Shown here: positions 2,513-37,207 of the stretch, piece after piece | Layout: the number at the start of each line of letters is the position of its first letter | Numbering within the stretch: position 1 is the first letter of the stretch | Virus record (IMG/VR): IMGVR_UViG_3300009159_008968 | Location: 71,410-135,409 of that record | Strand: one strand, 5' to 3' | Source of the DNA: a virus | Length of the DNA: 64,000 nt | Position numbers and translations under genes: made by a program | Notes under the pieces: model-generated | Database searches by the model: none | The model's input: the letters and a program-made list of their open reading frames with translations, nothing else | Told to the model about the DNA's origin: nothing

Positions 2513-2956
2513 TTAATTTATTTTTTTTAAAAGTTCTGACTTAATAAAATCAGGATTATCATAAATATCATGTTCCCAAAATCTTATAATATCATAACCT
2601 AAACCTTTGGCTAAGATATCTTTATCCCTATCATTTCTTTGAGATTTTTTTTGAACTTCGTTTAATTCCGAATACTCTTTTCCGTATCCGTGCCAATAGT
2701 CACCATCAACTTCGATCAAAAGATTAATTTTTGGAATATAATAATCGAAAATCTTGTCCTTAACTATTTTTTGTGAAAAGTGATATATGTTTAATTCATC
2801 TAAAATTAAACCCAACTGAACTTCAGGTCCGGTTGGGTTTAAATGCATTTTTTTTGCCTGACGCTCTATATAGTTTTTTTTCTGAGTAGGTGTTTTAGGT
2901 ATTTTAAGCTTCTTTTTCTCTTGCTTCAATAACCAGTTGATCTTGGATTTTGACAT
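2513..2956 (-). CDS. DUF559/Vsr-like endonuclease
   Basis: FDYYIPKINLLIEVDGDYWHG and RD..KD..A...GY.IIRFWEHDI motifs. Confidence 0.75.
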   Translation of the reverse strand: MSKSKINWLLKQEKKKLKIPKTPTQKKNYIERQAKKMHLNPTGPEVQLGLILDELNIYHFSQKIVKDKIFDYYIPKINLLIEVDGDYWHGYGKEYSELNEVQKKSQRNDRDKDILAKGLGYDIIRFWEHDIYDNPDFIKSELLKKIN

Positions 2957-4031
2957 ATTCTAATAAATAGAAATGTTTTCTTATTTCTATCAATAAATCA
3001 TTAACAAAATTCATATCAACATTATCTGGAAGATTAGATTCAATATAAAGTTTATCAATTTCTTTTATTTCATCTTCTGCATGTTGAATCAGATCCTCTA
3101 AATTTACTTTGCCTTGCCTGATTGAAATTAAAAACTCGGCATTTGGTCTACGAACATTAATTCCTTGCCCCAAAGCAATCTCTTTTGCCATATCCAATAA
3201 CCTACGAGTATGCATCATATTTTTACCATCAATAGATTGTTGGTGATTTTCAATCTCAACATAACGCTGAGTATTTCTGTTCTTTAACCACTCTTCGTAT
3301 TCTTTGTATTTACGACAATGCATAGAATATCCGTCTTCGTTGTAATAGAATATGCAAGTATGCTGCATATCTTTTGGAATATTACTTAATCGAATTTTAT
3401 TTGAATTTTCAACAACAATTCCTCTGAAACCAATACTAGATTCTAAATTACTATCAAAAAAAAGAGCATACATATCCCTAGCATGAGGAATTTTTGAAAT
3501 ACCACAAAATTTTTGATCAATTCCATTTTGTTTTAGAAAATCAATTAATGGAATAGTTTTTTGCCCTTCTACAACATAACAAAAATCAAGTGGTCCTTTG
3601 CGAGTTACTTGTGATTGCTCCCAATTCATTTTTTTATTTAAACCCTGAGCTTTTGATATTTGTTGACGAGCATAACCTCCAAAGCTATTACGACAATTTT
3701 TAGTAATAAATTTTTCTTTATTTTCTAAAATCATGTCCATAACAGGATGTTTATAAACAATACAATCTTCAGAAATATTCAATAATTCTAAAACGGTTGG
3801 ATTGTTTGATGCTAGAAGTTCTAAAAATCTTCTTATTTCATAATAAACAATATCATTTTTTGAATCATTAACTTGATCACGATAACCAAATCCAAGAATA
3901 TCATCTAAAGATTGTAAATAAATTCCTGAATAATCAGTATCGGAGCTTGGTAAGTTTGTCCCATAAGCATGGGAACCTCTGATTACTTTATAAATTAAAA
4001 TCCCCTGTTTTTCAACTTCTTGTACTGTCAT
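2904..4031 (-). CDS. RlaP/Pol-beta-superfamily nucleotidyltransferase
   Basis: GSHAYGTNLPSSDTDYSG (GS...DxD), NNPTVLELL and C-terminal KNMMH..RLL motifs. Confidence 0.75.
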   Translation of the reverse strand: MTVQEVEKQGILIYKVIRGSHAYGTNLPSSDTDYSGIYLQSLDDILGFGYRDQVNDSKNDIVYYEIRRFLELLASNNPTVLELLNISEDCIVYKHPVMDMILENKEKFITKNCRNSFGGYARQQISKAQGLNKKMNWEQSQVTRKGPLDFCYVVEGQKTIPLIDFLKQNGIDQKFCGISKIPHARDMYALFFDSNLESSIGFRGIVVENSNKIRLSNIPKDMQHTCIFYYNEDGYSMHCRKYKEYEEWLKNRNTQRYVEIENHQQSIDGKNMMHTRRLLDMAKEIALGQGINVRRPNAEFLISIRQGKVNLEDLIQHAEDEIKEIDKLYIESNLPDNVDMNFVNDLLIEIRKHFYLLEYVKIQDQLVIEAREKEA

Positions 4032-4154: not shown

Positions 4155-5036
4155 TTATTTTTTTGTATGTCTTTCACTAGCATGATATGGAAGGTGTTTT
4201 ACACGATCTCTAGGCTGCAAATTAATTGCACTAAAAGCTAAATTTTCTTCTTCTAAATTCTCATCTTTTGAACCAATTATTGCTTTTTGTAAATGATCTG
4301 GCAATTTGGATTGTTTTCCTTTTAATTTAGGATCATTATCATATTTATTAGTAAATTCATTTTCTTCTTCTAAACTTTCGTCTGCTGAACCTTTTTTATT
4401 GATAATTGCTTTCTGTAAATGATCTGGTAATTTAGACTGCTTTCCTTTTAATTTAGGATCATTATCATATTTATCAGTGAATTCGATTTCCTCTTCTAAT
4501 TCTTCATCTAGAGTTTTAGAAACTGGGCTATGATAAGGAAGATTTTCTTTGTTACGACCCGGAGTTCTAGTTTTGTCTGGGAAAGCTAACATTTTTTCAT
4601 CCATTTCTTGTTGTAAATTTTCACAACATTCATCGCACCATCCTTTTGCCTCATCTTCTGAATCAAAATATTCATTATCATGTACATCATCATTTTTCAA
4701 AATAATAGCAAGCCATTTATTTGAAGCGTTGATTCCATCTCTTGGAGATATGATTTTGCTATCAAAATTACCAACAGACATAGGCTCAACACGATCAAAT
4801 TCCATTTCCTCTTCCATATCTTCTGCTAATTCTTTTGCTTGAGCAGTAGCTATAGCATACGTTTTTGGAGTTTTGCCATATTTTGGTTTAAGAGCTTTGA
4901 CTAATTCTTCTTTCTTTTTTTCTTCAGCAGGAGTCAAAGGCCTTTCTTGAATATACCCATCTCCGGGCATTTCCATGATGTTTTTTACTGCTTCACGAAC
5001 AATTTGTCTTAAATTATTTTTAATATTCTCTGCCAT
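4155..5036 (-). CDS. Acidic putative head (internal) protein with a duplicated module
   Basis: N-terminal LRQIVREAV helix; FTxKYDNDPKLKGKQSKLPDHLQKAII occurs twice (126-nt period); Glu-rich linkers; TATTTAT upstream at 5055..5061. Confidence 0.6.
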   Translation of the reverse strand: MAENIKNNLRQIVREAVKNIMEMPGDGYIQERPLTPAEEKKKEELVKALKPKYGKTPKTYAIATAQAKELAEDMEEEMEFDRVEPMSVGNFDSKIISPRDGINASNKWLAIILKNDDVHDNEYFDSEDEAKGWCDECCENLQQEMDEKMLAFPDKTRTPGRNKENLPYHSPVSKTLDEELEEEIEFTDKYDNDPKLKGKQSKLPDHLQKAIINKKGSADESLEEENEFTNKYDNDPKLKGKQSKLPDHLQKAIIGSKDENLEEENLAFSAINLQPRDRVKHLPYHASERHTKK

Positions 5037-15170: not shown

Positions 15171-15629
15171 ATGAAAATAACAAAATCAGATTTACAAGAA
15201 ATCATAAAAGAAGAAGCAATTAGACTTTTTCAAATTCAAAAACTAGAAGAAGCACAAATGAAAGTTCAAGAAGAATTAAAACTTATTTCTGAAGGCAAAA
15301 AACAAATGTCTGATGAAGAAATGAACGAACTTTTAGCTGGTCTTAAAAGTGTTTTTGGTGCAGGAGCTCAAAAAGCAGGTCAAGTTGCAGCTAGTGCTGC
15401 ACAAAAAGTAGGACAAGCAGTTGCTGGTGCTGGAGATAAAGCGAAAGAAGTTGCCGGTAAAGTAGCTACAAAATATAAAGAAGGTGAGGCAGCTGCTAAA
15501 AAAGTAAAAATAGAGAAAAGAAGAGATGAAATTGTTGCAAAAATAAAAGAGTTAGCTAATGAATATAAAACGATCACAGGAAAGAGATATTCAATGGTTG
15601 GTCAAAAAATTGATGCTGTTAAAGCATAA
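15171..15629 (+). CDS. Putative head-associated protein
   Basis: N-terminal KITKSDLQEIIKEE helix and Ala/Lys-rich coil; TATTTAT at 15147..15153. Confidence 0.6.
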   Translation: MKITKSDLQEIIKEEAIRLFQIQKLEEAQMKVQEELKLISEGKKQMSDEEMNELLAGLKSVFGAGAQKAGQVAASAAQKVGQAVAGAGDKAKEVAGKVATKYKEGEAAAKKVKIEKRRDEIVAKIKELANEYKTITGKRYSMVGQKIDAVKA

Positions 15630-16378: not shown

Positions 16379-17032
16379 ATGAATAATCTCGATAATAAAT
16401 ATATTATTTCTGAATTTCTAGCTATAGATCCCGATGTTCAGAATATAAAAGAGGCGATTGAAAAAAATCAGCCAATTATTGTTCCTTGTATTTTACAGAA
16501 AGCGAACACTTTAAATAGAAATGGAAGACTTTATCCTTTTGATATTTTAAAAAGAGAAGTTGATAAATATCAAGAATTGGTAAAAGAAAGAAGTGCTATG
16601 GGCGAATTAGATCATCCAGATTCTGCTGTTATTTCCCTTGCTAATGTTTCACATATAATTACAGAAATGTCGTGGAAAGGTGAAACCTTATATGGAAAAA
16701 TTCAAATTGCAGATACTCCTGCAGGTGATACCGTTAAAGGCCTTTTAAAAACTGGAATAAAATTAGGAATATCTTCTCGTGGTGTTGGATCAGTAAAGAA
16801 AAATAGAGAAGGACAAGATGTTGTTCAAGAAGATTTTGAATTAATTGGATTTGATATTGTTTCATCTCCTTCTACGCCGGGAGCATATTTATTCAAAGAA
16901 TCAAAACAATGGGGAATGAAAAAATTAATGGATTCTGATCACAAATTATTAAAGACAGATGACGTTAAAATTAAAATAAAAAATTTAAAAAATAATCTAA
17001 ATAATTTATCCAAAGATGGGTTTTGGAATTAA
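16379..17032 (+). CDS. gp21: Prohead protease, T4 gp21-like
   Basis: NRNGRLYP, GELDHP, GISSRGVGS and FDIVSSPSTPGA motifs; probable start is the ATG at 16379. Confidence 0.92.
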   Translation: MNNLDNKYIISEFLAIDPDVQNIKEAIEKNQPIIVPCILQKANTLNRNGRLYPFDILKREVDKYQELVKERSAMGELDHPDSAVISLANVSHIITEMSWKGETLYGKIQIADTPAGDTVKGLLKTGIKLGISSRGVGSVKKNREGQDVVQEDFELIGFDIVSSPSTPGAYLFKESKQWGMKKLMDSDHKLLKTDDVKIKIKNLKNNLNNLSKDGFWN

Positions 17033-17115: not shown

Positions 17116-18651
17116 ATGTTGAATAAAAATATAATTAAAGACGCATTAGCTGATGCTAAAGAAATTGAAAAGTTTGCAATTGAGCAAGCTAGAAAATCTT
17201 TAGAAGAAGCTTTAATGCCTCAAATAGAAAAAGCGATTCAAGATAGTCTTCAAGAAAATACAACAGTAGAATCAGTTGAAGAAAATGAAATTGAAACTAT
17301 AACAATTTCTGAATCCTTTGAATCATCAGACAATTTAATATCTGAAAATACAAACTCACAAAATATACAAGAAATGTACAACGAAAAAGAAGAAACAAAT
17401 GAAGAGCTATTCGAGGTTGAAGGTCTTTTTGAAGATGAAGAAACTGCCCAAGAACCTACTGAAGCTTCATTAGAAGCAAAGCTTGATGCTATGACTGCTA
17501 AACTTGATACATTAATAGCTGCTGCACAAGGTGGTGGCGAAGAAGAAGCTTCTGCTGAAGGAGAAGTGGAAGTAGTAGATGATGAAGCTGCTGAAGCACC
17601 TGCTGCTCCAGCTCCAGCTGAACCTGCTGCTGCTGCATCGGCTCCGGCTGCACCTGCTGCTCCAGCTCCAGCTGAACAGCCTACTGTTACTGAAGATACC
17701 ATGTTTGAAATAGAAATGGAAGAAGACATGGAAGAAGGTCTTTTTGAAATGGAAGAAGATATGGAAGAAGGCATGGAAGAAGGTGATAAAGTTTATGAAA
17801 TAAACGTTGAAGAAGATATGGAAGAAGGTGATAAAGTTTATGAAATAAACGTTGAAGAAGATATGGAAGAAGGAGAAAGTGAAGTTGATCCTAAAACTGG
17901 TTTGCCTTTACCTCCAAAAGAGTATGGTGGAATTAAAGGTGGAATGGTTGGCGAGGACATGGAAGAAGGTCTTTATGAAATTGACATGGAAGAAGACATG
18001 GAAGAAGGTTGGAAAAAAGTTGAAGAAGATATGGAAGAAGAAGGAATGTTTGAAGTTGAAATGGAAGAAGGCGATATGGAAGAGTCAAGAAGTTTAGCTT
18101 TTTCTTCAAAAAATCGTGGTCCAAGATATAATCATAACAATTTACCTAAACATGCTCCAGTAACTACTCCAGCAAAAGGGTTAAATGAATCAAAAATAAA
18201 AGCTCAATATGAGTCTAAATTAGACGAGTTAATAAAGGAAAACGCAAGTTTAAAAGGTGTGATTAAAAACTACAAATCAAATTTAAAAGAATTTGAAAAT
18301 TCATTTGTAGAATTAAAATCGCAATTAAATGAAATGCAGACTTTCAATGGAAAATTAGCTTATGCAAATAAGTTATTAACCAAAGGTGGTTTGACAAATG
18401 ATGAGAAAATTAGAATAGCTGAGGAATTTGATAAGTGTGCAACTGTTGAAGATGCAAAAAAACTTTATAACAAAATCATCAGTGAAAATAAATTCTCTTC
18501 TAAGTCTAACGCTACTGATAAATTGAAATCTGTAAAGCCTAGCACGGCTTCGGTTCAAAATCTTTCTGAAAACAAAGCTGAAAAGCTTTTTGAAAGTGAA
18601 GAAAGAAGAAGAATGAAAATGCTCGCTGGTATCGTAAAACCAATTAATTAA
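17116..18651 (+). CDS. Prohead scaffold/core protein (gp22-like position)
   Basis: Lies between protease and capsid genes; very acidic EEDMEEG repeats, coiled-coil C-terminus, N.KL.YANKL motif, ends RRRMKMLAGIVKPIN. Confidence 0.85.
   Translation: MLNKNIIKDALADAKEIEKFAIEQARKSLEEALMPQIEKAIQDSLQENTTVESVEENEIETITISESFESSDNLISENTNSQNIQEMYNEKEETNEELFEVEGLFEDEETAQEPTEASLEAKLDAMTAKLDTLIAAAQGGGEEEASAEGEVEVVDDEAAEAPAAPAPAEPAAAASAPAAPAAPAPAEQPTVTEDTMFEIEMEEDMEEGLFEMEEDMEEGMEEGDKVYEINVEEDMEEGDKVYEINVEEDMEEGESEVDPKTGLPLPPKEYGGIKGGMVGEDMEEGLYEIDMEEDMEEGWKKVEEDMEEEGMFEVEMEEGDMEESRSLAFSSKNRGPRYNHNNLPKHAPVTTPAKGLNESKIKAQYESKLDELIKENASLKGVIKNYKSNLKEFENSFVELKSQLNEMQTFNGKLAYANKLLTKGGLTNDEKIRIAEEFDKCATVEDAKKLYNKIISENKFSSKSNATDKLKSVKPSTASVQNLSENKAEKLFESEERRRMKMLAGIVKPIN
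17773..17862 (+). repeat. Exact 45-nt tandem duplication in the scaffold (MEEGDKVYEINVEED x2)
   Basis: atggaagaaggtgataaagtttatgaaataaacgttgaagaagat occurs twice, within a longer EEDMEEG array. Confidence 0.9.
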
Positions 18652-18668: not shown

Positions 18669-20264
18669 ATGTCTGAATTATTAAACAGTGGACAAGTCGG
18701 TATGACCGTACTCCGTAACTTGTCTGAACAAAGAAAACAAATCATCAAAAACTGGGATAACTCTGGTTTACTTGAAGGTTTGAACGGTAACAAAAAAGCT
18801 AATATTGCTCAATTATTAGAGAACCAAGCGTCTCATATGCTTAATGAGGTAACTCTTGATAGTTCTGCTGGTCGTTTCGACACTGTAGCGTTTCCAATGG
18901 TAAGACGTATCTTCTCAAGATTACTTGCTTCTGAAATCGTTTCAGTTCAACCTCTTGCATTACCTTCAGGTTTGTTATTCTACATGGATGCTGCAGTATC
19001 TTCTGATAAAGTAGCTCCTTATTCTGTGGCTAACTCTCAAAATGGTCCTACATTCCCAGCGAATAAATCAGCTTACGAAAGATTTTATGATAACCGTGGT
19101 TATGATGCTTCTTGGGGTGTTGCTACTCAACGTGTTGGTTCTGCAATCTCTATCGGTTCTGGTTCTACTACAACTGGTTTAATTGCTACAGCTGTAACTT
19201 TAAGTTCTAATTTTGATGTGACTCTTAACCAGTCTTATACATCTTTAGTTCTTTCTGCAACTAGTGCAATTAGCTATGCTGGTACACAATTATATGCTGC
19301 TGGTGCAACTGGTGTAACTTACTATTCTAACCTTCAAACTTATGGTGCTGAATTAGTACAAAATGGTAATCCGGGCAATGTAAACAACATCTATAACATC
19401 GTTATTGATTTACGTCCAGCTCCAACATCTACAGCTGCTTATTCTTGGATTCAATCTGCTTTAACAGCTTCGTTTACGCTTACACCAATGTTCTACACTT
19501 ACAATACAATTGAAGCTAGTCCGAACATGTCAGAATTAACTCTTCGTTTCTCTTCTGTAACTGTAAACTCAATTACAAGAAAAATGAGAGCTCATTGGAC
19601 TCCGGAATTAGCTCAAGATTTGGAAGCATACCATTCAATTGATGCTGAAGCTGAATTAACAGCTTTATTATCAGAAGAAGTTGCTGCTGAAATTGACCGT
19701 GAGATCATCCGTGACCTTATCACTGGTGCCATGTTTGAAGCTCGTTGGGATTACCAAGGTCTTCGTGACAATGTTAACTTCTTCGGAACTCAAAAGGACT
19801 GGAACCAAACTTTAATCACTCGTATTAACGAAATTTCTGCTCAGATCCATAAAGCTACTCTTCGTGGTGGCGCTAACTGGGTTATCTGTTCTGCAGAAGC
19901 TGGTGCAATTTTCGATGATTTAGAGTATTTCCATGTAGATTCATCTGCATCTCCTGAGACTGAAAAGTATAACTTAGGTATGGAAAAAATCGGAAACTTA
20001 GGTAACCGTTATGTAGTGTACAAAGATCCTTATATGCCTGCTAACTTAGTATTAGTTGGACACAAAGGTAATACATTCCTTGAAGCTGGTTACGTTTACG
20101 CTCCGTACATTCCTCTTCAATTAACTCAAACGATCTACGATCCGAATGACTTTACACCTCGTAAAGGTATCATGACTCGTTATGCGAAGAAAATGATCAA
20201 TAACCGTTTCTATGGTGTTATCATCCTTGATAATCTTAACACTTATACTCAGGTATATAGCTAA
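18669..20264 (+). CDS. gp23: Major capsid protein, T4 gp23-like
   Basis: AQLLENQ, VSVQPLALPSGLLFY, ELAQDLEAYHSIDAEAEL, EIDREII, YAPYIPL and GIMTRYA motifs. Confidence 0.97.
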   Translation: MSELLNSGQVGMTVLRNLSEQRKQIIKNWDNSGLLEGLNGNKKANIAQLLENQASHMLNEVTLDSSAGRFDTVAFPMVRRIFSRLLASEIVSVQPLALPSGLLFYMDAAVSSDKVAPYSVANSQNGPTFPANKSAYERFYDNRGYDASWGVATQRVGSAISIGSGSTTTGLIATAVTLSSNFDVTLNQSYTSLVLSATSAISYAGTQLYAAGATGVTYYSNLQTYGAELVQNGNPGNVNNIYNIVIDLRPAPTSTAAYSWIQSALTASFTLTPMFYTYNTIEASPNMSELTLRFSSVTVNSITRKMRAHWTPELAQDLEAYHSIDAEAELTALLSEEVAAEIDREIIRDLITGAMFEARWDYQGLRDNVNFFGTQKDWNQTLITRINEISAQIHKATLRGGANWVICSAEAGAIFDDLEYFHVDSSASPETEKYNLGMEKIGNLGNRYVVYKDPYMPANLVLVGHKGNTFLEAGYVYAPYIPLQLTQTIYDPNDFTPRKGIMTRYAKKMINNRFYGVIILDNLNTYTQVYS

Positions 20265-25364: not shown

Positions 25365-25396
25365 AATTTAAACGCAGTATTTTAAAAAAAGTTACA
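25365..25396 (-). promoter_or_regulatory. TGTAACT-N15-CGTTTAAATT motif, copy 2
   Basis: Identical boxes and spacing to 4050..4081 and 29539..29570. Confidence 0.6.
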
Positions 25397-26414: not shown

Positions 26415-26490
26415 TTTTTTATTTGTTTATAATAATAAATAACCTTGTTTTTTTTAATTTTAATAAATTATAGATTATTTATACTTAACC

Positions 26491-27663
26491 ATGGAAATTA
26501 GAAAATTAATTAGAAAAATTATAAACGAGTCTTTTTTGACTGAAAACGAAGTAAAAAGAATAGATTTTAATTATCCTTTACCGGAAGATTTAAATAAATT
26601 AAAAAAATACTTTGATGATAACGATTTTGAATTATTTGTTGTAGGCGGAGCAGTACGTGATATGATATTAGGAAAAAATCCTAAAGATATTGATTTGGTT
26701 TCTGACGCTACTCCTGATGATGTAAAAAGAATTTTACCAAAAGAATATAAAATTATTCCAAAAGGAGAAGCGTTTGGCATTGTTCAAATAATAACACCAG
26801 AAGGTGGTGATTATGAAATTGCTCGTTACAGAGAAGATATTGGAAAAGGTGATGGAAGAAGACCTGATTCAGTTAAATTCTCAACAATTGATTCTGATGC
26901 TCTAAGAAGAGATTTGACCATTAACGCCCTTTATTATGATGTTAATAAAAATCAAATAATTGATTTTGTTAATGGATATGAAGATATTCTGAAAAGAAAT
27001 ATTAAAACAGTTGGTAAAGCAGAAGAAAGATTTGATGAAGACCGTTTAAGGATTTTGAGAGCTTTTAGATTTGCAGCGAGATTTAATTCAAATTTAGATC
27101 AAGATATTGTTGATGCTCTGAGAAATAATAATTCTTTAGTGGGAATATCAGAAGAAAGAATTAGAGATGAGTTTTTAAAAGGAATTCAAAGCTCACAATC
27201 TGTTGTCAAATTCCTTACTGATTTAGATAACTATGGATTATTAAAACAAATTTTAGGTGACCTAGATTATAACAGTACTGATTTTATAGAAACACATGAT
27301 TATATTGTTTTATTGGCCAATATTTTGAAAACAAATCCAGTTAACAAAATACAATCAAGTTTAAATTCTTTAAAATATACAACTGATGAAATAAAGAAAA
27401 TTGTCTTTTTAGTACTTTTCTTAAAATTTGATCCTGAGTCAGTTTATAATTTCAAAATAAAAGAAAAAGTTTCTAAAATATCTGATGAAGAAGTTTTAGA
27501 ATTCGCTAAAATAAATTCTATGAATATGAATATGGTTCAAAAATTCTTAGATTTTAAATTATCTGTATCTGGAGATGAACTATTGAATAAAGGTTTCAAA
27601 GGAGCCGCTTTAGGTCAAGAAAAAGAAAGATTGGAAACAATTAATTTTTTAGATACATTATAA
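26491..27663 (+). CDS. cca: CCA-adding tRNA nucleotidyltransferase (class II) with an N-terminal extension
   Basis: VVGGAVRD, KDIDLVSDATP, RRDLTINAL, EDRLRILRAFRFA and ISEERIRDEF motifs. Confidence 0.9.
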   Translation: MEIRKLIRKIINESFLTENEVKRIDFNYPLPEDLNKLKKYFDDNDFELFVVGGAVRDMILGKNPKDIDLVSDATPDDVKRILPKEYKIIPKGEAFGIVQIITPEGGDYEIARYREDIGKGDGRRPDSVKFSTIDSDALRRDLTINALYYDVNKNQIIDFVNGYEDILKRNIKTVGKAEERFDEDRLRILRAFRFAARFNSNLDQDIVDALRNNNSLVGISEERIRDEFLKGIQSSQSVVKFLTDLDNYGLLKQILGDLDYNSTDFIETHDYIVLLANILKTNPVNKIQSSLNSLKYTTDEIKKIVFLVLFLKFDPESVYNFKIKEKVSKISDEEVLEFAKINSMNMNMVQKFLDFKLSVSGDELLNKGFKGAALGQEKERLETINFLDTL

Positions 27664-27683: not shown

Positions 27684-28451
27684 ATGAAAAAAGATAAAAT
27701 TCCCGGTGGTAAAGCAAAAGGTAAATCTTTGAAAGATATTGCAATGATGCATTCTACCGATAAATCTGATTCTAGAAAAATTGATAAATTACTTGATAGT
27801 CTAAAAATAGAATTAAAAAAAGGAATTAAAACTGAATTGGAACACACAACCAATGAAGAATATGCTAAAGAAATAGCAATGGATCATTTATATGAAGATC
27901 CAAAATATTATACAAAACTTTCAAAAATTGAAGAAATGAAAAATACAAAAAAATTAAATCTTAACGACCTTTCAAGAATGGTGAAAAAAGCCTTGAACGA
28001 AGAGTTTGAGGGCGGCGTGAACTATGACACCGATGTTGCCATTGAGTTAAAATCCAAGGTGGGGCAACTTTCCAAACTTACACCGTATGTTCTTGAATTG
28101 GGAAACAGGGTCGTTTCGGACATTACAGGAAAAGTAAGCGTATACGAAGATACAACACTCAAAAAGAAATTCAATAACGTTGATGATTTACTTAAGGGTA
28201 TAAAATATGGTCCAACAAGAATAACAGAAGAAGATTCTTCAATGCCACATAAAGATCATGAAGCTATGATGGCGAAAGCAGAGATTCGTGATATGGTTAA
28301 AAATGCGAAAGAAGTTTATAAAATGATTCAACCGGGTGATGAACTTCCGGGTTGGGTTTCGGCTTATATAACTTTAGCTTCTGATTATATGCATAGCATC
28401 GCTGAATATATGACTGAAAAGAATAGTTCAGGTGAAGATTTAGAACAATAA
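27684..28451 (+). CDS. Three-module putative head protein
   Basis: KGIKTELEHT..AKEIAMDHLYEDPKYYTKL module, GC-richer middle module, C-terminal DELPGWVSAYITLASDYM module. Confidence 0.6.
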   Translation: MKKDKIPGGKAKGKSLKDIAMMHSTDKSDSRKIDKLLDSLKIELKKGIKTELEHTTNEEYAKEIAMDHLYEDPKYYTKLSKIEEMKNTKKLNLNDLSRMVKKALNEEFEGGVNYDTDVAIELKSKVGQLSKLTPYVLELGNRVVSDITGKVSVYEDTTLKKKFNNVDDLLKGIKYGPTRITEEDSSMPHKDHEAMMAKAEIRDMVKNAKEVYKMIQPGDELPGWVSAYITLASDYMHSIAEYMTEKNSSGEDLEQ

Positions 28452-28470: not shown

Positions 28471-28498
28471 TAACCCCGACTACAAATCGGGGTTTTTT
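28471..28498. terminator. Terminator hairpin between convergent genes
   Basis: AACCCCGA-CTACAAA-TCGGGGTT flanked by A and T runs. Confidence 0.75.
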
Positions 28499-29520
28499 AT
28501 GAATGGTTTTTCGTAAGCAGGTTCAATTATTTTCCATATTATATAATCGTATTTTTTACCATCTAACATCTTAAATAATATAGCTGGGTATTTTTGTTTT
28601 TTTGCATACTCTGCAAAATCAGCTCTGGTTTCACCTAAATTCCAAGAATGAAATCTATGAAATAATTTATTAGATTCTTGTTCAATAGATTTATAATTGT
28701 TTTCTAATGTAAGCTTAGTGTCTTTTACCCAATTATAAAATTCATCTGGAACTTTATCTAATATCTCATTAAAATCACCTCCATCAACTAAAAATTGCCA
28801 AATAGTTCTTGATGAAACTTGAGTCAAAATCCTATGCAAGCGAACATACTCATCAAACTTAACTTTTAAACGAAATCCGTTTTGGAATTTGACAACAAAT
28901 CCTTCTTTGTTATTCTCTTCTAATTTTTTTAATTCATTTATATCTTTGATCCCATCGTATCTTTTTACAATAGGAAATCCAATAGGTTCTAACTCACAAT
29001 CTAAACCCGTTTCTTTATCTATAACAGCTAACAAAATTATATCATGAGTATTACCATAATTTACACAAATACGATTCTCGGGGTAGATTATTTCAAACAA
29101 ATATGTTTTTGTTTTATCTAATCTAGGAATAACATTTATATACCTGTTATGTAAAATCTTAGTTGCATAAATTGCTTGATCAGATTCGAAAGAACCTCTT
29201 GTTGCAATAAATGGTTCATCACCTATCCAATACAATATTCCTAAAGACCCATCCATTTTTTCATAAACTTCAAAAGGTAATGAAGGTATTTCCTCATTGG
29301 TATGTTCTTCTAAATTAAAAAACTTCTTAAATGGACGTGCAATTACATTATAGTTTGAATCTAATATTAATCCTCTACATTGTAAGGTAATATCATTCCA
29401 CAACCTCTCATATTGCACTTTTGGTCCATAATTATAAATGAAATAGTCAGCAGTTTTATGCTTCTGCACGATGATCATTTTATCATCTATCATCTTATTT
29501 AAATCGCTGATATTTAACAT
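28480..29520 (-). CDS. T4 Rnl1/RnlA-like RNA ligase
   Basis: CRGLIL, ARPFKKFFN, motif I EKMDGSL, FEII, motif IV EGFVV and motif V RLKVKFDEY. Confidence 0.88.
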   Translation of the reverse strand: MLNISDLNKMIDDKMIIVQKHKTADYFIYNYGPKVQYERLWNDITLQCRGLILDSNYNVIARPFKKFFNLEEHTNEEIPSLPFEVYEKMDGSLGILYWIGDEPFIATRGSFESDQAIYATKILHNRYINVIPRLDKTKTYLFEIIYPENRICVNYGNTHDIILLAVIDKETGLDCELEPIGFPIVKRYDGIKDINELKKLEENNKEGFVVKFQNGFRLKVKFDEYVRLHRILTQVSSRTIWQFLVDGGDFNEILDKVPDEFYNWVKDTKLTLENNYKSIEQESNKLFHRFHSWNLGETRADFAEYAKKQKYPAILFKMLDGKKYDYIIWKIIEPAYEKPFIKNPDL

Positions 29521-29538: not shown

Positions 29539-29570
29539 AATTTAAACGAAAATTACTTAAATTAGTTACA
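29539..29570 (-). promoter_or_regulatory. TGTAACT-N15-CGTTTAAATT motif, copy 3
   Basis: Upstream of the RNA ligase; continues as TAAATTTG, which matches the Bacteroidota -7 consensus. Confidence 0.6.
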
Positions 29571-29592: not shown

Positions 29593-30072
29593 ATGTTTGA
29601 GAGAAAAATAAGAAAGACTGTTCGTGAAATCATGGAACAAGAATATATTAAAGATCAATCTGTCTATGATATTGTTGGAAAAAAAATGGGTGATATATTT
29701 CCAAGTAATCCCGGTATAAATAAAATAAGAAATAAAACTATCACATACGCAAAATTATTTGAAGGTGGTGAAGAGTTTAAAGGATATTACTCTTCAAAAG
29801 AATATTTAAGAAATGAAGGTTATGAATCAGGATCTATGATGAGAGATTATCCTATACCTTTTATGAAAATGGGTAAAACTCATGTTGATAATAGAGGAAA
29901 TACTATGATCATAACTAAATACGAAGAAGAACGACCTTTGATAATTACAAAATATGATGCACTTTCTGCTGAAAGTTTTGCTGAACTAGATGGAGTTATA
30001 ATTCCAGCTCCAGATCAAAATAATATGAGAGAGGGAAGTATCTATGTTGTATTCTTTAATTTTCCTGATTAA
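29593..30072 (+). CDS. Hypothetical protein with N-terminal RKIRKTVREIME helix
   Basis: 159-aa ORF; TATTTAT at 29571..29577. Confidence 0.6.
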   Translation: MFERKIRKTVREIMEQEYIKDQSVYDIVGKKMGDIFPSNPGINKIRNKTITYAKLFEGGEEFKGYYSSKEYLRNEGYESGSMMRDYPIPFMKMGKTHVDNRGNTMIITKYEEERPLIITKYDALSAESFAELDGVIIPAPDQNNMREGSIYVVFFNFPD

Positions 30073-30456: not shown

Positions 30457-30497
30457 TTTTACATTCTATTTATTAATATAGTATAAACTCAAATAAA

Positions 30498-30788
30498 ATG
30501 AAACTTAATAAACAAGAATTTTTTAACCTTATAAAAGAAGAAGTAAAAAAAGCTATTGAGGAAATTAATACACTTAATGAAGGTAAAACAAAAAAGAAAA
30601 AACCTTCAGCTGGTTTGACTGCAAAAGAAAAATCTAAAGTGGTTAAAAAAGCTAAAAAAGGTGGAGATATAGGTAAAAAAGGAAAAGGTTTTGAAGATGT
30701 TGTAGCAAAGGCAAAAGAATGGGGTGCTGATGATCCAGAAGCTGTAGCAGCTGCAGCAATGTGGAAAAATATTAAAAGAGGTAAATAA
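30498..30788 (+). CDS. Small basic putative head protein
   Basis: FFNLIKEEVKKAIEE helix, then GADDPEAVAAAAMW; TATTTAT at 30467..30473. Confidence 0.6.
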   Translation: MKLNKQEFFNLIKEEVKKAIEEINTLNEGKTKKKKPSAGLTAKEKSKVVKKAKKGGDIGKKGKGFEDVVAKAKEWGADDPEAVAAAAMWKNIKRGK

Positions 30789-30789
30789 T

Positions 30790-31104
30790 ATGATAGATAT
30801 TCACGCTGATCCCGGTTCTTATATTCAAGGAGCAAATAATATTGCATTATCTAACTCATTTAAAAAATTATTAAATGCTAGACCAGATACAACTATTCCA
30901 TTTTTCTTTGATAAAGACGGAAAACAATATATGGGAAGAGCTAAAACAATGTCTGGTGCTAAAGGTGATTATCCAACTTACTACATTAATTTTTTTGAAT
31001 TAGATAATGAAGAAACTGGATTAAAAAAAATAGAATCAAAAATTTTTGCAAAAGGTAGATTAGAATTAGAAGAGAAATTATACGACTATTATAATTCTTT
31101 ATAA
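30790..31104 (+). CDS. Hypothetical protein
   Basis: 104-aa ORF coupled to the previous gene. Confidence 0.55.
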   Translation: MIDIHADPGSYIQGANNIALSNSFKKLLNARPDTTIPFFFDKDGKQYMGRAKTMSGAKGDYPTYYINFFELDNEETGLKKIESKIFAKGRLELEEKLYDYYNSL

Positions 31105-32622: not shown

Positions 32623-33129
32623 ATGGAAAAACAAATACTAATAGAATTTATAGAAAAAAATTTTAGCATATCTAAAATTTCTTTAGAAACAAATCTTAGT
32701 AAAACTACTATTAATTATTGGTTAAAAAAATACTCTTTAAAAACATTATCTCAAAATAAAAAAGAAAAGATATGTCCAAGATGTAAAACTAAAAAATTAT
32801 TAGAAGATTTCTATAACAGAAGAAATAAATTTGGAGGTTCTGTTTATTGCAAGAAGTGTACAAACAATCAAATTAAAGAAAGACAAACAGAATATAAAAA
32901 AAAATGTGTTGATTACAAAGGTGGATGTTGTTCTATAAAAAATTGTGGCTATAACAAGTGTCTTACTGCATTAGAATTTCATCATTTGGATCCTAGCAAA
33001 AAGGATTTTTCTATAGGTGAAAAAAAACAATTTTGTTTTGATGAGAGTATTAAAAAGGAATTAGACAAATGTATTTTAGTATGTTCAAACCACCATCGAG
33101 AAATTCATGCTGGTTTAATTGTGCTTTAG
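32623..33129 (+). CDS. HNH endonuclease with N-terminal HTH-like and Zn-finger segments
   Basis: CPRC..CKKC, LEFHHLDP and ELDKCILVCSNHHREIH motifs. Confidence 0.85.
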   Translation: MEKQILIEFIEKNFSISKISLETNLSKTTINYWLKKYSLKTLSQNKKEKICPRCKTKKLLEDFYNRRNKFGGSVYCKKCTNNQIKERQTEYKKKCVDYKGGCCSIKNCGYNKCLTALEFHHLDPSKKDFSIGEKKQFCFDESIKKELDKCILVCSNHHREIHAGLIVL

Positions 33130-33203
33130 TGATTCCGATTGGATTCGAACCAATGGCCATTTCTTTAGAAGAGAAATGCTCTGTCCAGCTGAGCTACGGA
33201 ACC
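33130..33203 (-). tRNA. tRNA-Arg(UCU), no encoded CCA
   Basis: GGTTCCG/CGGAATC acceptor stem, GCTC/GAGC D-stem, TTTCT-CTTCTAA-AGAAA anticodon arm, TTCGAAT T-loop; 3' end reads A-CTA. Confidence 0.92.
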
Positions 33204-33209
33204 ATGTTG

Positions 33210-33281
33210 TAGCGGGAGAAGGATTCGAACCTCCGACTTCCAGATTATGAGTCTGGTGACCCACCTCTGGTCCATCCCGCA
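33210..33281 (-). tRNA. tRNA-Met(CAU), initiator-like, no encoded CCA
   Basis: TGCGGGA/TCCCGCT with T1:T72 mismatch, GACC/GGTC D-stem, CCAGA-CTCATAA-TCTGG, TTCGAAT; 3' end reads A-CAA. Confidence 0.9.
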
Positions 33282-33348
33282 ATAGAACTTGTGTTACAAA
33301 TATAATAAAAAAAAATTATTTTAAAAATAATTTTATAATTTTTTCATG

Positions 33349-33432
33349 TACTCGGGGCGAGACTCGAACTCGCACGGCCACAATGACCAACAGATTTTAA
33401 GTCTGTCTTGGCTACCTTTACAACACCCGAGC
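33349..33432 (-). tRNA. tRNA-Leu(UAA), no encoded CCA
   Basis: GCTCGGG/CCCGAGT, ACAGA-CTTAAAA-TCTGT, long variable arm, TTCGAGT; 3' end reads A-CAT. Confidence 0.92.
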
Positions 33433-33859: not shown

Positions 33860-34045
33860 ATGAACAATTCCAAGACATTTATTAAAACGCAAGAACAATA
33901 TGAGAAAGCGCTAGAATTATACAGAATATTATGGTTAAATTCCAATAATTTTTCTACAATAAAGGCAAAAGCTTCTTTAATGGAAATAATAGAACAATAC
34001 GAAAGAATGAATTTAAAAAATGATAATATTTTAATTAAAAATTAA
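33860..34045 (+). CDS. Small helical hypothetical protein
   Basis: Probable start is the ATG at 33860 (MNNSKTFIKTQEQYEKAL). Confidence 0.45.
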   Translation: MNNSKTFIKTQEQYEKALELYRILWLNSNNFSTIKAKASLMEIIEQYERMNLKNDNILIKN

Positions 34046-34902
34046 GCCACATTTCTTCTTCTACCCCAAATATTTCCATAATTTTGATCTACTTCTTGTT
34101 TTTTCATAAAAAATAGTTCTCTTGGGGTATATAATTGTTTTTGATCTTCTAATGATAAATCTGGTCCATTTACAGGATAGCTCCATTTAAATCCATTAAA
34201 TTTATTTTGTGTTTTCATTTCTTTAAGAAGATCCATCACAAATCTCATATACTTTTCTATTGGCTTTTTATTTTGTTTTCCTTTAACCTGAGTAATGTTG
34301 CCAGTTTCTTCATTATAAGCTACAGTTACATGAGGTTCTTTAGTTTTCTTATCTCTTAAAGATAATAGGGTAGTAGCTTTACCATCTCTTCCACAATGAC
34401 CCATAGCATTTCCTTCTTCGGGTGAATTATTTGTTTTCAAATCAATCCAATAATATCCTTCTGGATATTGTTTTATAATCTCACCTGATTCATCTGTTAT
34501 TTGACCAGATGCTTGTAAAGTTTGGTGCCATTCAATCGCTGCTTCAAGAGCTTCTTCTAGAGTTTTAATTTGTTTTAAATCAACTTGTTCTCTATTTGGA
34601 AATTTCAACCATTCCATAATAGTATTTACGGTAGTTTCGTTATTTTTTAAATACTCTATAACTTTATTTTGATCTACTTGTGGTAAAATTTCTTTTAAAT
34701 TAGAGCTACTAACACCGTGATCATTAGCATATTGTCTTGTAGACCAATCGCCTAACACTAAGGCATATTTTCCTCCAACATCATTAAGATAAGTAGCAAA
34801 TTCATCTGAAAAACCTAATTTCATTAATTTTTCGTTCTTATTTTCAGTAAGAACTCCAGCTAACATTTTTATTCTTTGTGAATATTTCTCGCTTAATAAC
34901 AT
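34042..34902 (-). CDS. PcfJ-like domain protein with a scaffold-like N-terminal peptide
   Basis: EEGNAMGHCG, LLSLRD..EPHVTV and QVKGKQN motifs. Confidence 0.65.
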   Translation of the reverse strand: MLLSEKYSQRIKMLAGVLTENKNEKLMKLGFSDEFATYLNDVGGKYALVLGDWSTRQYANDHGVSSSNLKEILPQVDQNKVIEYLKNNETTVNTIMEWLKFPNREQVDLKQIKTLEEALEAAIEWHQTLQASGQITDESGEIIKQYPEGYYWIDLKTNNSPEEGNAMGHCGRDGKATTLLSLRDKKTKEPHVTVAYNEETGNITQVKGKQNKKPIEKYMRFVMDLLKEMKTQNKFNGFKWSYPVNGPDLSLEDQKQLYTPRELFFMKKQEVDQNYGNIWGRRRNVA

Positions 34903-34961: not shown

Positions 34962-36458
34962 ATGAAAAATAGTCCTTATAAATTGAATTTTAAAATTGTC
35001 AAAGTAAAAGATAAAAATATAAAAGAAGATATTGGTATTTTTAGAACTACTCCAACAGCTACTGGATATTACTTATTGTTAAGTTCTGATCTAAGAGGAG
35101 AAGATGGTGCAAAGGAATCAGCTATAATGGGTAAACTATTAAAAGTTACAAAAGGAGCAAATTATGATCATAGTGTTCCTATGCCAAAATATTTTAAAGA
35201 TTTTCAAACTGGTCAATTTGGATGGGGATATTTTTTACCAATGAATGCTGATGAGGAAAAAACAAATCAAATTTTAAATAATTTAAGAGAATTAAAGAAA
35301 GAATATTATAAGGCTAAGAAAATGGAACCGTCTGAAGATACCGGTAATTTAAGTTTAAATGATGTAAAGGAATTAAGAAGTATAAATGTAAAAGAACTTG
35401 GTGATGCTATTGAAAATGCTGCAGATAATACAGAAAATTCTGAGATACAAAATCGTTTAGATAAATATTTTTCTGATTTACAAAAAGCCGTTGAAGATGA
35501 TACGATTTTCTTGTTTTTAATTGACAATTATGAAAAAGCGAAAAAATTCCAAACTAGAAATACTGCTTGGAAATATTCTTTATTAAATTCTTTAATTATA
35601 ACAATTGCTGATCCAACTGCATCTTTGGCTGGTCCAAAAGATTATTGGGATGGAATTGGTTATAAAGTCAAAGATGAATATACTAAAAATGGTATTTTAA
35701 TTACAAAACCGAAATCTTCACTACAAACTAAAGGAAAATCAGATGTTGCTGAAAAAGTTAAATGGGCAAAAGAGAATCCAAATGTAATGAGAGATTTTTT
35801 AAGAGATCAAGGATATGATGCAAGTGAAACATTCACCGATGAAAAAAAATATCAATTAGCAAAATATATAACATCAAAAGGGTTATATGGTAAAAGAACA
35901 GGTGGATTTGAAACAGCTATGGTTTATACAAACAACATGGTTGAGCCTGCTCCGGGAAGAGATGCTATTGATTTATCTGGAGAAGCAGATTATAATGTTC
36001 TTGAAAAGGATTACGAACAAAATTTAGTACCATTATTCAATGCAATATTAGCAGTTTGTGAAAAAACTGGAACTAATATTCCTGAAGCAATGAAAGCTAA
36101 TAAAAATGATTTAAGAAATTTTAACAGAATTGTTTCTGCATTAGCTAAAAAAATGTTAGCAGAAAGCTATGGCGGAGAAGGAAAAGTTAAACCAGAAGAT
36201 CGTGAACAACTAGAAGTAAGAACAGAAAGTGTTGCTCAGATTATAAAAAATCATTATAAAATTGAATCTGAAAAAAGCATATTGAATATTGCTGCTTTGG
36301 GAGCAGATAGAGAATCTTTAGAAAAAAGTAAGGCTAAGATTTTAAATACTGCTGATAAACTTATTAATCAGATTGATGCTGAATTAGAAAAGAATATTCA
36401 AGAAAGTAAAATCAGAAAAATGATTTCTAAATTAATCAGAGAAAATTTTAGCAAATAA
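34962..36458 (+). CDS. ArdC-N-like ssDNA-binding domain plus degenerate metallopeptidase-like domain
   Basis: YSLLNSLIITIADPTASLAG..W..IGYKVK..GILI..P; later LEVRTESVAQII, with SALAK at the expected HExxH position. Confidence 0.6.
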   Translation: MKNSPYKLNFKIVKVKDKNIKEDIGIFRTTPTATGYYLLLSSDLRGEDGAKESAIMGKLLKVTKGANYDHSVPMPKYFKDFQTGQFGWGYFLPMNADEEKTNQILNNLRELKKEYYKAKKMEPSEDTGNLSLNDVKELRSINVKELGDAIENAADNTENSEIQNRLDKYFSDLQKAVEDDTIFLFLIDNYEKAKKFQTRNTAWKYSLLNSLIITIADPTASLAGPKDYWDGIGYKVKDEYTKNGILITKPKSSLQTKGKSDVAEKVKWAKENPNVMRDFLRDQGYDASETFTDEKKYQLAKYITSKGLYGKRTGGFETAMVYTNNMVEPAPGRDAIDLSGEADYNVLEKDYEQNLVPLFNAILAVCEKTGTNIPEAMKANKNDLRNFNRIVSALAKKMLAESYGGEGKVKPEDREQLEVRTESVAQIIKNHYKIESEKSILNIAALGADRESLEKSKAKILNTADKLINQIDAELEKNIQESKIRKMISKLIRENFSK

Positions 36459-36913: not shown

Positions 36914-37207
36914 TTAATCTTTGTTTTTTGAATTTAAACGAGAATTTTTTGATTTTGTTACAAATTTAATATGTTTTTTTGAACTAAGAGTCAAATACCC
37001 TGAATTTAATTGTAATTTTTTAAATTTAATAATTTCTCGAACAATTTCAAGTCCTTTTTTAGAATTATGTTCATAAAAGAAGTTGTTTTTTTTCCCTTGG
37101 CCTGTACGCACTTTTGGGACATAATCAGTATCAATATAATTTTCAACGAGTTTTTTATTAAACTCATCTAAATTAAAGTAAAATTCTTTTATGATACTTT
37201 TGTGCAC
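36914..37207 (-). CDS. Hypothetical basic protein
   Basis: 97-aa ORF, GTG start, TATTTAT upstream. Confidence 0.5.
   Translation of the reverse strand: MHKSIIKEFYFNLDEFNKKLVENYIDTDYVPKVRTGQGKKNNFFYEHNSKKGLEIVREIIKFKKLQLNSGYLTLSSKKHIKFVTKSKNSRLNSKNKD

Follow-up and report, generated by a model that had tools for sequence, protein, structure and literature searches.

A modular N-terminal peptide on the CCA-adding-type enzyme of an uncultured giant phage is consistent with capsid targeting

Why would a tRNA 3'-end enzyme encoded by a giant phage begin with a peptide that lies outside its fold, behind a promoter-like motif that also precedes head genes? The gene in question lies in a window of 64,000 nt (the whole stretch of DNA that was analyzed), i.e., positions 71,410 to 135,409 of the IMG/VR virus record IMGVR_UViG_3300009159_008968 (135 kb), which comes from an uncultured giant phage whose host group is Bacteroidota. 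Comparison of 20 kb of the window with GenBank phages by megablast gave no matches. A first-pass annotation had read the gene as a CCA-adding enzyme with about 20 extra residues before the usual start of the fold, and had proposed that the product is packaged and injected to repair or mature tRNA 3' ends ahead of phage gene expression. The features on which our analysis rests are collected in Table 1.

Table 1. Features of the window, with coordinates counted from its first nucleotide
Feature	Coordinates	Strand	Basis
RlaP-family nucleotidyltransferase (RNA repair)	2904..4031	-	Pfam RlaP, E 1.5e-20
CGTTTAAAT before RlaP	4051-4059	-	
Unrelated ORF, N-terminal type-1 tag, TATTTAT upstream	4155..5036	-	
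152-aa ORF, gp67/gp68 position upstream of protease, type-1-like N-terminus, internal LAGL	15171..15629	+	
ORF between the 152-aa ORF and the protease	15767-16327		
T4 gp21-type prohead protease, TATTTAT upstream	16379..17032	+	Pfam Peptidase_S77, E 5.2e-32; PHROG 207
Acidic scaffold-like protein, gp22 position, C-terminal R-M-K-M-L-A-G-I, TATTTAT upstream	17116..18651	+	
T4 gp23-type major capsid protein	18669..20264	+	Pfam Gp23, E 3e-74; PDB alignment
TATTTAT promoter-like element (structural-gene class), 8 nt before ATG of CCA gene	26476..26482	+	
Class II CCA-adding-type tRNA nucleotidyltransferase, 390 aa (predicted activity)	26491..27663	+	Pfam, PHROG, NCBIfam, PDB sequence search, AlphaFold/Foldseek
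N-terminal tag, residues 1-20: predicted amphipathic helix (2-14) and flexible linker	26491..26550	+	AlphaFold, homologue comparison
I-N-E in tag, residues 11-13	26521-26529		
L-T-E in tag, residues 16-18	26536-26544		
Catalytic motifs of the enzyme	Residues: GGAVRD 52-57, DxD 66-68, RRD 139-141, EDxxR 183-187		
DUF5661 protein, internal tag-like segment at residues 96-108	27684..28451	+	Pfam DUF5661, E 1.1e-11
Bidirectional terminator-like hairpin, end of CCA-DUF5661 unit and of convergent ligase gene	28472..28494	.	
T4 RnlA-type RNA ligase	28480..29520	-	Pfam RNA_lig_T4_1, PHROG 562, TIGR02308
CGTTTAAAT, second promoter-like class, upstream of RNA ligase	29540..29548	-	
Unrelated ORF, N-terminal type-1 tag, TATTTAT upstream	29593..30072	+	
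Unrelated ORF, type-1 tag at residues 12-22, TATTTAT at 30467-30473	30498..30788	+	
Three phage tRNA genes (Arg-TCT, Met-CAT, Leu-TAA), 3' CCA encoded in none	33129..33432	-	
ORF with N-terminal type-2 tag R-I-K-M-L-A-G-V, copy of scaffold C-terminus	34042..34902	-	

By sequence comparison and structure prediction, the ORF encodes a full-length class II CCA-adding-type tRNA nucleotidyltransferase, the class being a predicted activity, since CCA-adding, A-adding and CC-adding enzymes and poly(A) polymerase cannot be told apart with certainty from sequence alone. The original identification is backed by Pfam, NCBIfam, PHROG, PDB sequence and fold matches. The ATG at 26491 is the sole usable start because the frame opens just 8 codons upstream and the next methionine, M58, follows GGAVRD. 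The PolyA_pol head (PF01743) was matched above its cut-off at residues 48-171 (E 2.7e-35) and an RNA-binding domain (PF12627) at residues 204-258. Invariance among 50 homologues of G52, G53, R56, D57, D66 and D68 indicates that GGxVRD and the DxD metal-binding carboxylates are present, and the same holds for R139, R140 and D141 (motif B), for E183, D184 and R187 (motif D template), and for the neck motif E (E222-R223-I224-R225-D226-E227). Across the flexible loop, the PDB sequence search gave a gap-free alignment of motifs B, D and E with the Planococcus CCA enzyme. The AlphaFold model (mean pLDDT 91.7) has the complete head-neck-body-tail architecture of the solved CCA enzymes, which without exception make up its best Foldseek matches (TM 0.68-0.72), E. 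coli poly(A) polymerase reaching a TM of 0.53. With the curated equivalog model of CCA tRNA nucleotidyltransferase (NF009814) the enzyme scores 186.8 bits, short of the cut-off of 290, and it also falls short with the pcnB subfamily model (168.8 against 305.65); judged from its sequence, the enzyme belongs to a divergent viral clade, with relatives fused to kinase, HAD, HD, cREC and DUF5661 modules. The identification also fits the RnlA-type ligase and RlaP genes of the same genome and the phage tRNA genes without an encoded CCA. The enzyme itself is ordinary, and the interest lies in the peptide at its N-terminus, which we refer to as the tag (type 1).

The tag extends the protein by about 20 to 26 residues beyond 78 cellular homologues and the solved CCA enzymes. 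In the alignment with the Bacillus stearothermophilus enzyme (1miv), query residues 41-230 pair with chain residues 15-201, i.e., there are 26 extra residues; the first aligned position of the NCBIfam CCA model is query 42 (profile 17), and GGxxRD is preceded by 51 residues compared to a median of 28 in the 78 cellular homologues. AlphaFold gives residues 1-20 pLDDT values of 67 and then 45 (a low-confidence helix followed by a disordered linker) and values of at least 93 from residue 21, where the confident fold begins, so that the extension is predicted to stand outside the enzyme fold. The first-pass annotation had named in advance what would speak against it, the presence of the extension in cellular homologues, and none of the 78 has it; together with the alignments and the model, this confirms the extra residues. 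Four apparent tag matches in cellular enzymes were rejected, as they correspond to the core helix just ahead of GGxxRD and not to an extension. The consensus of the tag among CCA homologues, I..L.E..L.E, defines two conserved hydrophobic-x-Glu motifs at its end.

Within the viral homologues, the tag is kept in most, absent in some, swapped in one and internal in fusion proteins. It is visible by eye in most of 120 database homologues, and its profile reaches at least 4 bits in 24 of 61 distinct viral N-terminal regions. About 19 viral CCA genes begin exactly after the tag, and one homologue (P0071) has in its place a scaffold-like, LAG-type peptide (type 2). The tag is conserved within the clade down to 46% identity, and relatives with higher GC content (45-51%) retain the peptide pattern with Arg and Val replacing Lys and Ile. 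An N-terminal position is not obligatory, since the tag is internal in the fusion proteins. Homologue comparison and the predicted structure agree in making the first 20 residues a modular, flexible segment and not a part of the enzyme fold. Tagged homologues are also found on contigs labeled bacterial, e.g., P0084 and the MAG contigs L085 and L086.

We searched a tag profile built from the CCA homologues alone in the proteome of this phage, in those of two related phages (G001 and G014) and in that of a control Flavobacterium phage. In this proteome, 11 to 12 further matches score above the best reversed-sequence control; at a threshold of at least 4 bits there are 12 matches, the enzyme's own included, eight of which begin within the first 12 residues (0.5 expected). 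N-terminal matches make up 15 of 23 in G001 (1.2 expected) and, at a lower threshold, 10 of 23 in G014 (1.4 expected), and none of the four in the AT-rich control phage. Some proteins have tag-like matches internally or at the C-terminus. In a Pfam scan of ten other tagged proteins, nine had no family and the remaining one a UVR match below threshold, and a tblastn search with the tagged ORFan at 4155-5036 was without match. A type-1 tag recognizable in sequence is therefore common to proteins that are otherwise unrelated.

The promoter-like motifs divide the RNA-repair genes. The annotation had placed TATTTAT at 26476 and assigned the ligase and RlaP-like genes to another promoter class; the motif was found there, on the plus strand, and CGTTTAAAT lies upstream of both of the other genes. 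In the whole window TATTTAT is not over-represented (63 seen, 64.9 expected). In the sense orientation, at most 45 nt upstream, it precedes 41 of 139 genes, compared to 7 to 12 in composition-matched shuffles and 11 in antisense. In each of the three genomes it stands ahead of the protease and scaffold genes, and tagged genes are enriched for it (Fisher p = 0.0027, 1.4e-5 and 0.0066). Its position before head and tail genes suggests that the class is late-type; it is also found ahead of DnaE-N and Vsr-like endonuclease genes, and thus, the class may not be strictly late. Distances from the motif to the ATG are short and fall into two groups, 4-5 and 14-22 nt; the 8 nt at the CCA gene, a spacing that is the same in the close relative G001, would make its mRNA almost leaderless. 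That TATTTAT might be the T4 late box TATAAATA on the opposite strand was rejected, since the sense orientation prevails by 16:4, 34:7 and 32:9 in co-directional intergenic regions. CGTTTAAAT occurs seven times in the 135-kb record, six of them upstream of genes. Scanning the locus for sigma-70 promoters gave no more than chance (25 found, 27.9 expected). In other phages, TATTTAT precedes just 8 of 25 tagged CCA genes, with no association (p = 0.32), and the tagged CCA gene is often behind a host-type TAnnTTTG promoter.

Downstream, the DUF5661 gene is probably co-transcribed with the CCA gene, the gap between them being 20 nt without a terminator; its product scores 3.6 bits with the tag profile, and a DUF5661-CCA fusion is found in other phages (L043).

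The phage has a T4-type head machinery. The N-terminal propeptide of the capsid protein contains LSE, LLE, LLE and LNE motifs, and proteases of the gp21 family cleave after Glu (PMC5694885, PMC9026906), the T4 capsid-targeting sequences being N-terminal propeptides of 10-20 residues (PMC5694885, PMC9026906). By analogy, I-N-E13 and L-T-E18 of the tag, conserved as L.E..L.E, would be comparable cutting motifs. The type-2 tag equals the C-terminal peptide of the scaffold in three phages, namely this one, G001 and the cultured Flavobacterium phage immuto (vB_FspM_immuto, NC_055915). The scaffold peptide of immuto is ..KLAGII.., and it recurs close to the N-termini of two small proteins, gp083 and gp230; in G014 the scaffold has no LAG-type C-terminal peptide and the type-2 tag is absent too. 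Immuto has no CCA homologue, and its two best type-1-like matches are located in the two head-core proteins that flank the protease. A gp21 gene was found in all three of the records at least 90% complete that hold a CCA homologue, and in 8 of 20 large records with one, a count that is informative neither way because the misses fall in records 28-70% complete.

We consider loading into the capsid the best reading of the tagged CCA enzyme, at a probability somewhat short of even. It draws on the modularity and sharing of the tag, the motif of the head genes, the presence of gp21 and gp23, the hydrophobic-x-Glu ends and the type-2 tag that copies the scaffold; the type-1 tag itself would be tied to the head by analogy, by one swap (P0071) and by the two matches in immuto. 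In this scheme, the enzyme would be a member of a phage tRNA repair and maturation kit and its tag a T4-style capsid-targeting sequence acting as a detachable address label. During prohead assembly, the amphipathic helix would dock the enzyme into the scaffold core, and the gp21-type protease would then cut off the tag behind I-N-E13 and/or L-T-E18; the remaining enzyme would begin where the natural tag-less variants begin. Once packaged, it may travel with the DNA into the next cell and restore tRNA 3' ends before phage gene expression. The interpretation offered by the first-pass annotation is partly supported, in that separate lines of observation agree with a tag for capsid targeting. The complete scenario is more tentative: a ready-made CCA enzyme, packaged in the capsid, released by the protease and injected to rebuild tRNA 3' tails (e.g., after Cas12a3) prior to expression, as one of a set of roughly 15 to 30 proteins that either of two interchangeable tags would send to the prohead, one tag being a mimic of the coat-binding C-terminus of the scaffold. 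Several observations speak against capsid loading: the roughly 25 to 30 tagged proteins in G001 would be much cargo, the promoter of the tagged CCA gene varies across other phages, TATTTAT also stands ahead of the DnaE-N and Vsr-like genes, the mRNA would have almost no leader, and the tag is internal in fusion proteins. Publications with virion mass spectrometry of the jumbo phages XacN1 and Atu_ph07 give the CCA enzyme solely as a tRNA-processing gene.

It is possible, if on balance doubtful, that the enzyme is cytoplasmic and simply made together with the structural genes, adding CCA to the phage tRNAs and mending tRNA ends during heavy late translation, and that its tag binds a common partner other than the capsid, such as a chaperone, an assembly site or a phage hub protein, or else promotes oligomerization. 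An amphipathic helix could bind many partners, tagged proteins are numerous, host-type promoters are frequent at the tagged CCA genes of other phages, and the encoded CCA is missing from all three phage tRNA genes; moreover, jumbo-phage CCA enzymes are generally taken as cytoplasmic repair enzymes (PMC7824862). However, such a role would leave unexplained the conserved double hydrophobic-x-Glu ending, the replacement of the tag by one that matches the C-terminus of the scaffold exactly, and the tag-less variants that begin exactly after the tag. It seems improbable that the extension is a working part of the viral enzyme clade (a tRNA-binding, autoinhibitory or dimerization helix) and that it resembles other N-termini only because amphipathic helices have converged where the genome is AT-rich. 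Its conservation within the clade, its retention at the domain junction in fusions and the weak match of the profile to the first core helix of some cellular homologues would fit, but the extension is predicted to be unpacked and followed by a disordered linker, it is dispensed with by the tag-less viral homologues and replaced by an unrelated tag in one, and the profile matches are strongly N-terminal, tied to one promoter class in three genomes and absent at N-termini in the AT-rich control phage.

We would also give little weight to the tag being some other recognition or anchoring peptide, be it the target of a modifying enzyme or an amphipathic helix that binds membranes and leads proteins to a membrane-attached assembly site. 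The net basic tag helix with its single hydrophobic face would fit, but no co-occurring modifying enzyme was noticed in the record, the tag contains several Glu residues, and the type-2 tag that mimics the scaffold would have no explanation. Least probable of all, and very unlikely in our estimate, is an effect at the RNA level, in which selection on the first codons of short-leader TATTTAT transcripts would favor an A-rich stretch free of structure for ribosome loading, the peptide being incidental. The short, bimodal spacing does imply leaderless or very short leaders, and Bacteroidota are not known to rely on Shine-Dalgarno pairing. Nevertheless, the peptide pattern survives the amino acid replacements in the 45-51% GC relatives, the tag also occurs internally and at C-termini, and protein-level conservation extends to the periodicity of the hydrophobic residues and to the places of the Glu residues.

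If capsid loading is correct, a swappable peptide code for T4-type head loading would account for some of the dark proteome of jumbo phages and would provide a handle for packaging foreign proteins. Defenses that cripple tRNAs include the removal of the universal CCA tail by Cas12a3; the authors of that study state that phage tRNAs cannot evade tail cutting and that viral countermeasures are not known (PMC12851939). To repair such cuts, a CCA-adding enzyme of the phage's own is the obvious choice; if the virion brought it in preformed, it would act before the defense halts translation.

Compared to the class II CCA enzymes of B. stearothermophilus (1MIV), Planococcus (6QY6) and human (TRNT1, 4X4W), the phage enzyme is alike in its head-neck-body-tail fold (TM about 0.7), in the catalytic motifs GGxVRD, DxD, RRD and EDxxR, and in its full-length flexible loop; identity is only ca. 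25%, and the phage enzyme alone has the 20-26 extra N-terminal residues. The locus also resembles the RNA-repair gene sets of jumbo phages (Iyer et al. 2021, PMC7824862) in combining a CCA enzyme with RNA ligase, RlaP and end-healing modules, and the fusions of its relatives to cREC, HAD, kinase and HD resemble those of the jumbo-phage CCA enzymes there; the passages of that survey available to us describe neither an N-terminal tag, nor its sharing, nor repair genes that fall into two promoter classes. The nearest parallel to the tag is the capsid-targeting sequence of T4, found on the internal proteins IPI-III and Alt and removed by gp21 (Mullaney and Black 1996; PMC9026906, PMC9958956). Both are short N-terminal peptides on unrelated proteins that end in hydrophobic-x-Glu, in phages with a gp21-family protease and gp23. 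Scaffold C-terminal coat-binding peptides and the cargo-loading peptides of encapsulins likewise use a short terminal peptide to dock a protein inside an HK97-fold shell. They are paralleled here by the scaffold C-terminal ..LAGI.. that recurs at the N-termini of small phage proteins, a likeness that applies directly to the type-2 tag, which among the CCA enzymes is that of P0071 only, the one in the window being of type 1. Unlike its T4 counterpart, the phage tag, known here from sequence alone, is longer (ca. 20 residues) and of another sequence; it is found on many more proteins, including an RNA-repair enzyme, and it is accompanied by a second type that copies the C-terminus of the scaffold.

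The enzyme identity of the CCA gene is well supported. The Pfam PolyA_pol head domain covers residues 48-171 of the ORF (E 2.7e-35) and the RNA-binding domain residues 204-258, PHROG 2244 (tRNA nucleotidyltransferase) was matched as well, and the closest solved structures by sequence are CCA-adding enzymes (6ibp, 1.4e-31; 1miv, 2e-30), with E. coli poly(A) polymerase behind (1.3e-25). An AlphaFold model with 50 homologues as input (mean pLDDT 91.7) had full-length CCA enzymes as its top structural matches (TM 0.68-0.72; poly(A) polymerase reached 0.53), and the homologues show no variation in GGAVRD, the DxD pair, RRD, EDxxR or motif E. The score of 186.8 lies under the NCBIfam equivalog cut-off of 290, which marks the enzyme as one of a divergent viral clade, with CCA addition as its putative activity. 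Fusion partners in relatives of this clade include cREC, HAD phosphatase-like, P-loop kinase, HD and DUF5661 modules. Here, a separate DUF5661 gene follows the CCA gene after a 20-nt gap that contains no terminator, and a bidirectional hairpin closes the unit; the DUF5661 protein is the probable operon partner of the enzyme. At two loci in other phages (L043 and L048), the CCA enzymes carry an N-terminally fused DUF5661 at the tag position (see below). This association ties an uncharacterised domain to tRNA-end repair.

The first-pass annotation had proposed about 20 extra residues before the usual start of the fold. The figure was right, because the enzyme has 26 extra N-terminal residues relative to 1miv, 51 residues precede GGxxRD compared with a median of 28 in homologues from cellular genomes (n = 78), and the confident fold of the model begins at residue 21, its first strand being the counterpart of the very start of cellular enzymes. 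For residues 2-14 the model has a helix, at a modest pLDDT of 67, and residues 12-19 fell below 50. The same annotation had pointed to cellular homologues as the place where the extension should be missing, and none of the 78 carried it. Nearly all metagenome and IMG/VR homologues, down to 46% identity, retain a peptide that reads hydrophobic-basic-x-x-hydrophobic-basic-x-hydrophobic-hydrophobic-x-Glu and then a further hydrophobic-x-Glu (type-1 tag). The extension acts as a module: it is absent from ca. 19 viral CCA genes that start exactly after the tag position, in fusion proteins it separates the extra N-terminal domain from the CCA domain, and in one homologue (P0071) it is replaced by a different leader of the type ..R-L-Q-E-L-A-D-I...

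A tag profile built solely from the N-termini of CCA homologues was searched against the proteome of the whole record, where 11-12 matches on other proteins scored above the best reversed-sequence score. At a threshold of at least 4 bits there were 12 matches, including the enzyme's own tag; eight begin no later than residue 12 (0.5 expected), and two lie at C-terminal ends. N-terminal matches made up 15 of 23 in a close relative (G001, 222 kb, 87% complete; 1.2 expected) and, at a lower threshold, 10 of 23 in a distant complete one (G014, 310 kb; 1.4 expected), compared with 0/4 in the 100 kb searched of the Flavobacterium phage vB_FspM_immuto, used as an AT-rich control. AT-rich phage genes in general thus do not show this pattern. 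A Pfam scan of ten other tagged proteins gave no family for nine and a sub-threshold match for one.

The TATTTAT of the first-pass annotation was present, 8 nt ahead of the CCA-gene ATG. Overall, the motif is not over-represented in the window (63 seen, 64.9 expected), but its positions depart widely from chance: it occurs in sense within 45 nt upstream of 41/139 genes, whereas composition-matched shuffles gave 7-12 and the antisense orientation 11. Within co-directional gene arrays, the sense to antisense ratios were 16:4, 34:7 and 32:9 in the record, G001 and G014. Protease and scaffold genes are preceded by TATTTAT in all three, with the capsid gene directly after the scaffold gene, and in this phage the motif also precedes tail and baseplate genes; calling the class "late" is a reasonable inference. 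DnaE-N and Vsr-like genes have it too. The spacing to the ATG in these genomes is bimodal (4-5 and 14-22 nt), which suggests a leaderless mRNA class beside short-leader mRNAs. The rare second promoter-like motif, CGTTTAAAT, usually with a T-run ahead, occurs seven times in the record. Six of these copies lie upstream of genes, which include those for the RNA ligase, RlaP and a small signal-peptide protein. The contrast drawn earlier between the two promoter classes was correct. In this record, TATTTAT is enriched at N-terminally tagged genes (6/7 against 35/132 others, p = 0.0027), as it is in the second (12/15 against 62/263, p = 1.4e-5) and third genome tested (4/7 against 55/449, p = 0.0066). 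In other phages it precedes just 8 of 25 tagged CCA genes, several having TAnnTTTG boxes, which counts against the link between tag and promoter.

The source record (135,409 bp, of which the window is bases 71410-135409; CheckV completeness 55%, 29% GC) comes from a myophage whose head module is of T4 type. Among cultured phages, immuto is its closest relative by capsid protein, and this kinship, together with the Bacteroidota-type TAnnTTTG box upstream of many genes, fits a Bacteroidota host. All three records at least 90% complete with a CCA homologue encode gp21. Proteases of this family cleave after the Glu of x-x-Glu motifs (PMC9026906, PMC5694885, PMC9958956). Two hydrophobic-x-Glu motifs, I-N-E13 and L-T-E18, close the tag (conservation pattern L.E..L.E), and the capsid propeptide contains LSE, LLE, LLE and LNE. 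A cut after the second motif would leave an enzyme starting where the natural tag-less variants start.

Coordinates of the features discussed (window positions unless prefixed)
Feature	Position	Strand	Remarks
RlaP nucleotidyltransferase	2904-4031
CGTTTAAAT, window sites	4051-4059, 25366-25374, 29540-29548, 36932-36940	-
142-aa protein	14275-14703	-	tag-like segment at extreme C-terminus
gp21 prohead protease (Peptidase_S77)	16379-17032		E 5.2e-32
Acidic scaffold-like ORF	between protease and capsid ORFs		type-2 peptide (basic-M-x-x-L-A-G-I) at C-terminus, 18610-18651
Gp23-type major capsid protein	18669-20264		E 3e-74
TATTTAT of CCA gene	26476-26482
CCA-adding-type tRNA nucleotidyltransferase	26491-27663		390 aa; PolyA_pol head, RNA-binding domain, PHROG 2244
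DUF5661 protein	27684-28451
Bidirectional hairpin	28472-28494
RnlA-type RNA ligase	28480-29520		convergent to CCA gene
Tagged gene	30498-30788	+	TATTTAT at 30467-30473
Longer ORF	30473-30847	-	probably a shadow of the real tagged gene 30498-30788
tRNA genes (Arg-TCT, Met-CAT, Leu-TAA)	33129-33432	-	n = 3; none with encoded CCA end
Type-2 peptide	34042-34902 (ORF, near its N-terminus)	-
Type-2 peptide	G000:C1:29725-30426 (ORF, near its N-terminus)
Type-2 peptide	G001; NC_055915 gp083, gp230 and scaffold-position protein
498-aa protein	34962-36458	+	weak GDSL-lipase-like match; tag-like segment at extreme C-terminus
Tandem paralogues, 786 aa each	52364-54724, 54789-57149	+	shared tail-sheath-like N-terminus; upstream regions near-identical, without TATTTAT
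Immuto acidic protein	NC_055915.1 125626-126867		between protease and capsid genes; annotated "DNA polymerase phi-like"
Dense run of small-protein genes	G001:C1 about 24000-58000

A second leader (type-2, basic-M/L-x-x-L-A-G-I/L) is identical to the scaffold C-terminal peptide in this phage, G001 and immuto, and lies near the N-termini of otherwise unrelated small proteins in all three, one of them cultured (two proteins here, 8-9 in G001, two in immuto). Its position and the conservation of both its termini identify the immuto acidic protein as the scaffold. In G014 the scaffold end is different and type-2 leaders are absent. This reuse suggests mimicry of the scaffold as a route into the head. 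G001 has a stretch of tagged genes (ca. 24-58 kb) in which the two leader types intermingle, most of the genes having their own TATTTAT; in a comparison limited to tagged genes, several of them had no counterpart in the 135-kb record.

That a modular tag exists, and that it goes with the promoter class of the head genes, is well supported. The tag's most coherent reading, by analogy and co-variation, is a capsid-targeting sequence, a tentative assignment that we hold at somewhat under even chances. For the type-1 tag, this role would rest on the single swap in P0071 and on immuto, where the two best type-1-like matches lie in the two head-core proteins flanking the protease. The cross-phage promoter data give the capsid-targeting reading no help, and the large number of tagged proteins weighs against it. 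In the main rival reading, the late enzyme stays in the cytoplasm and its tag binds a different partner. The enzyme would mature the phage tRNAs, which lack an encoded CCA in three of three genes and therefore depend on a CCA-adding enzyme; we consider this rather unlikely. The full scenario of the first-pass annotation, in which a capsid-targeted enzyme would be injected and repair tRNA ends, seems equally doubtful.

Jumbo phages with a CCA enzyme are already known, such enzymes being an established component of jumbo-phage RNA repair sets (PMC7824862). Within the literature covered, we found no published description of a conserved, detachable, cargo-type leader on a CCA enzyme, swappable with a scaffold-mimicking one. 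A known parallel is T4, where capsid-targeting sequences are N-terminal propeptides of 10-20 residues through which unrelated proteins enter the core of the prohead (PMC9026906, PMC5694885, PMC9958956). The two C-terminal tag-like segments of the window resemble the C-terminal propeptide of T4 Alt, and the G001 stretch of small-protein genes is reminiscent of the variable loci that encode internal proteins in T-even phages.
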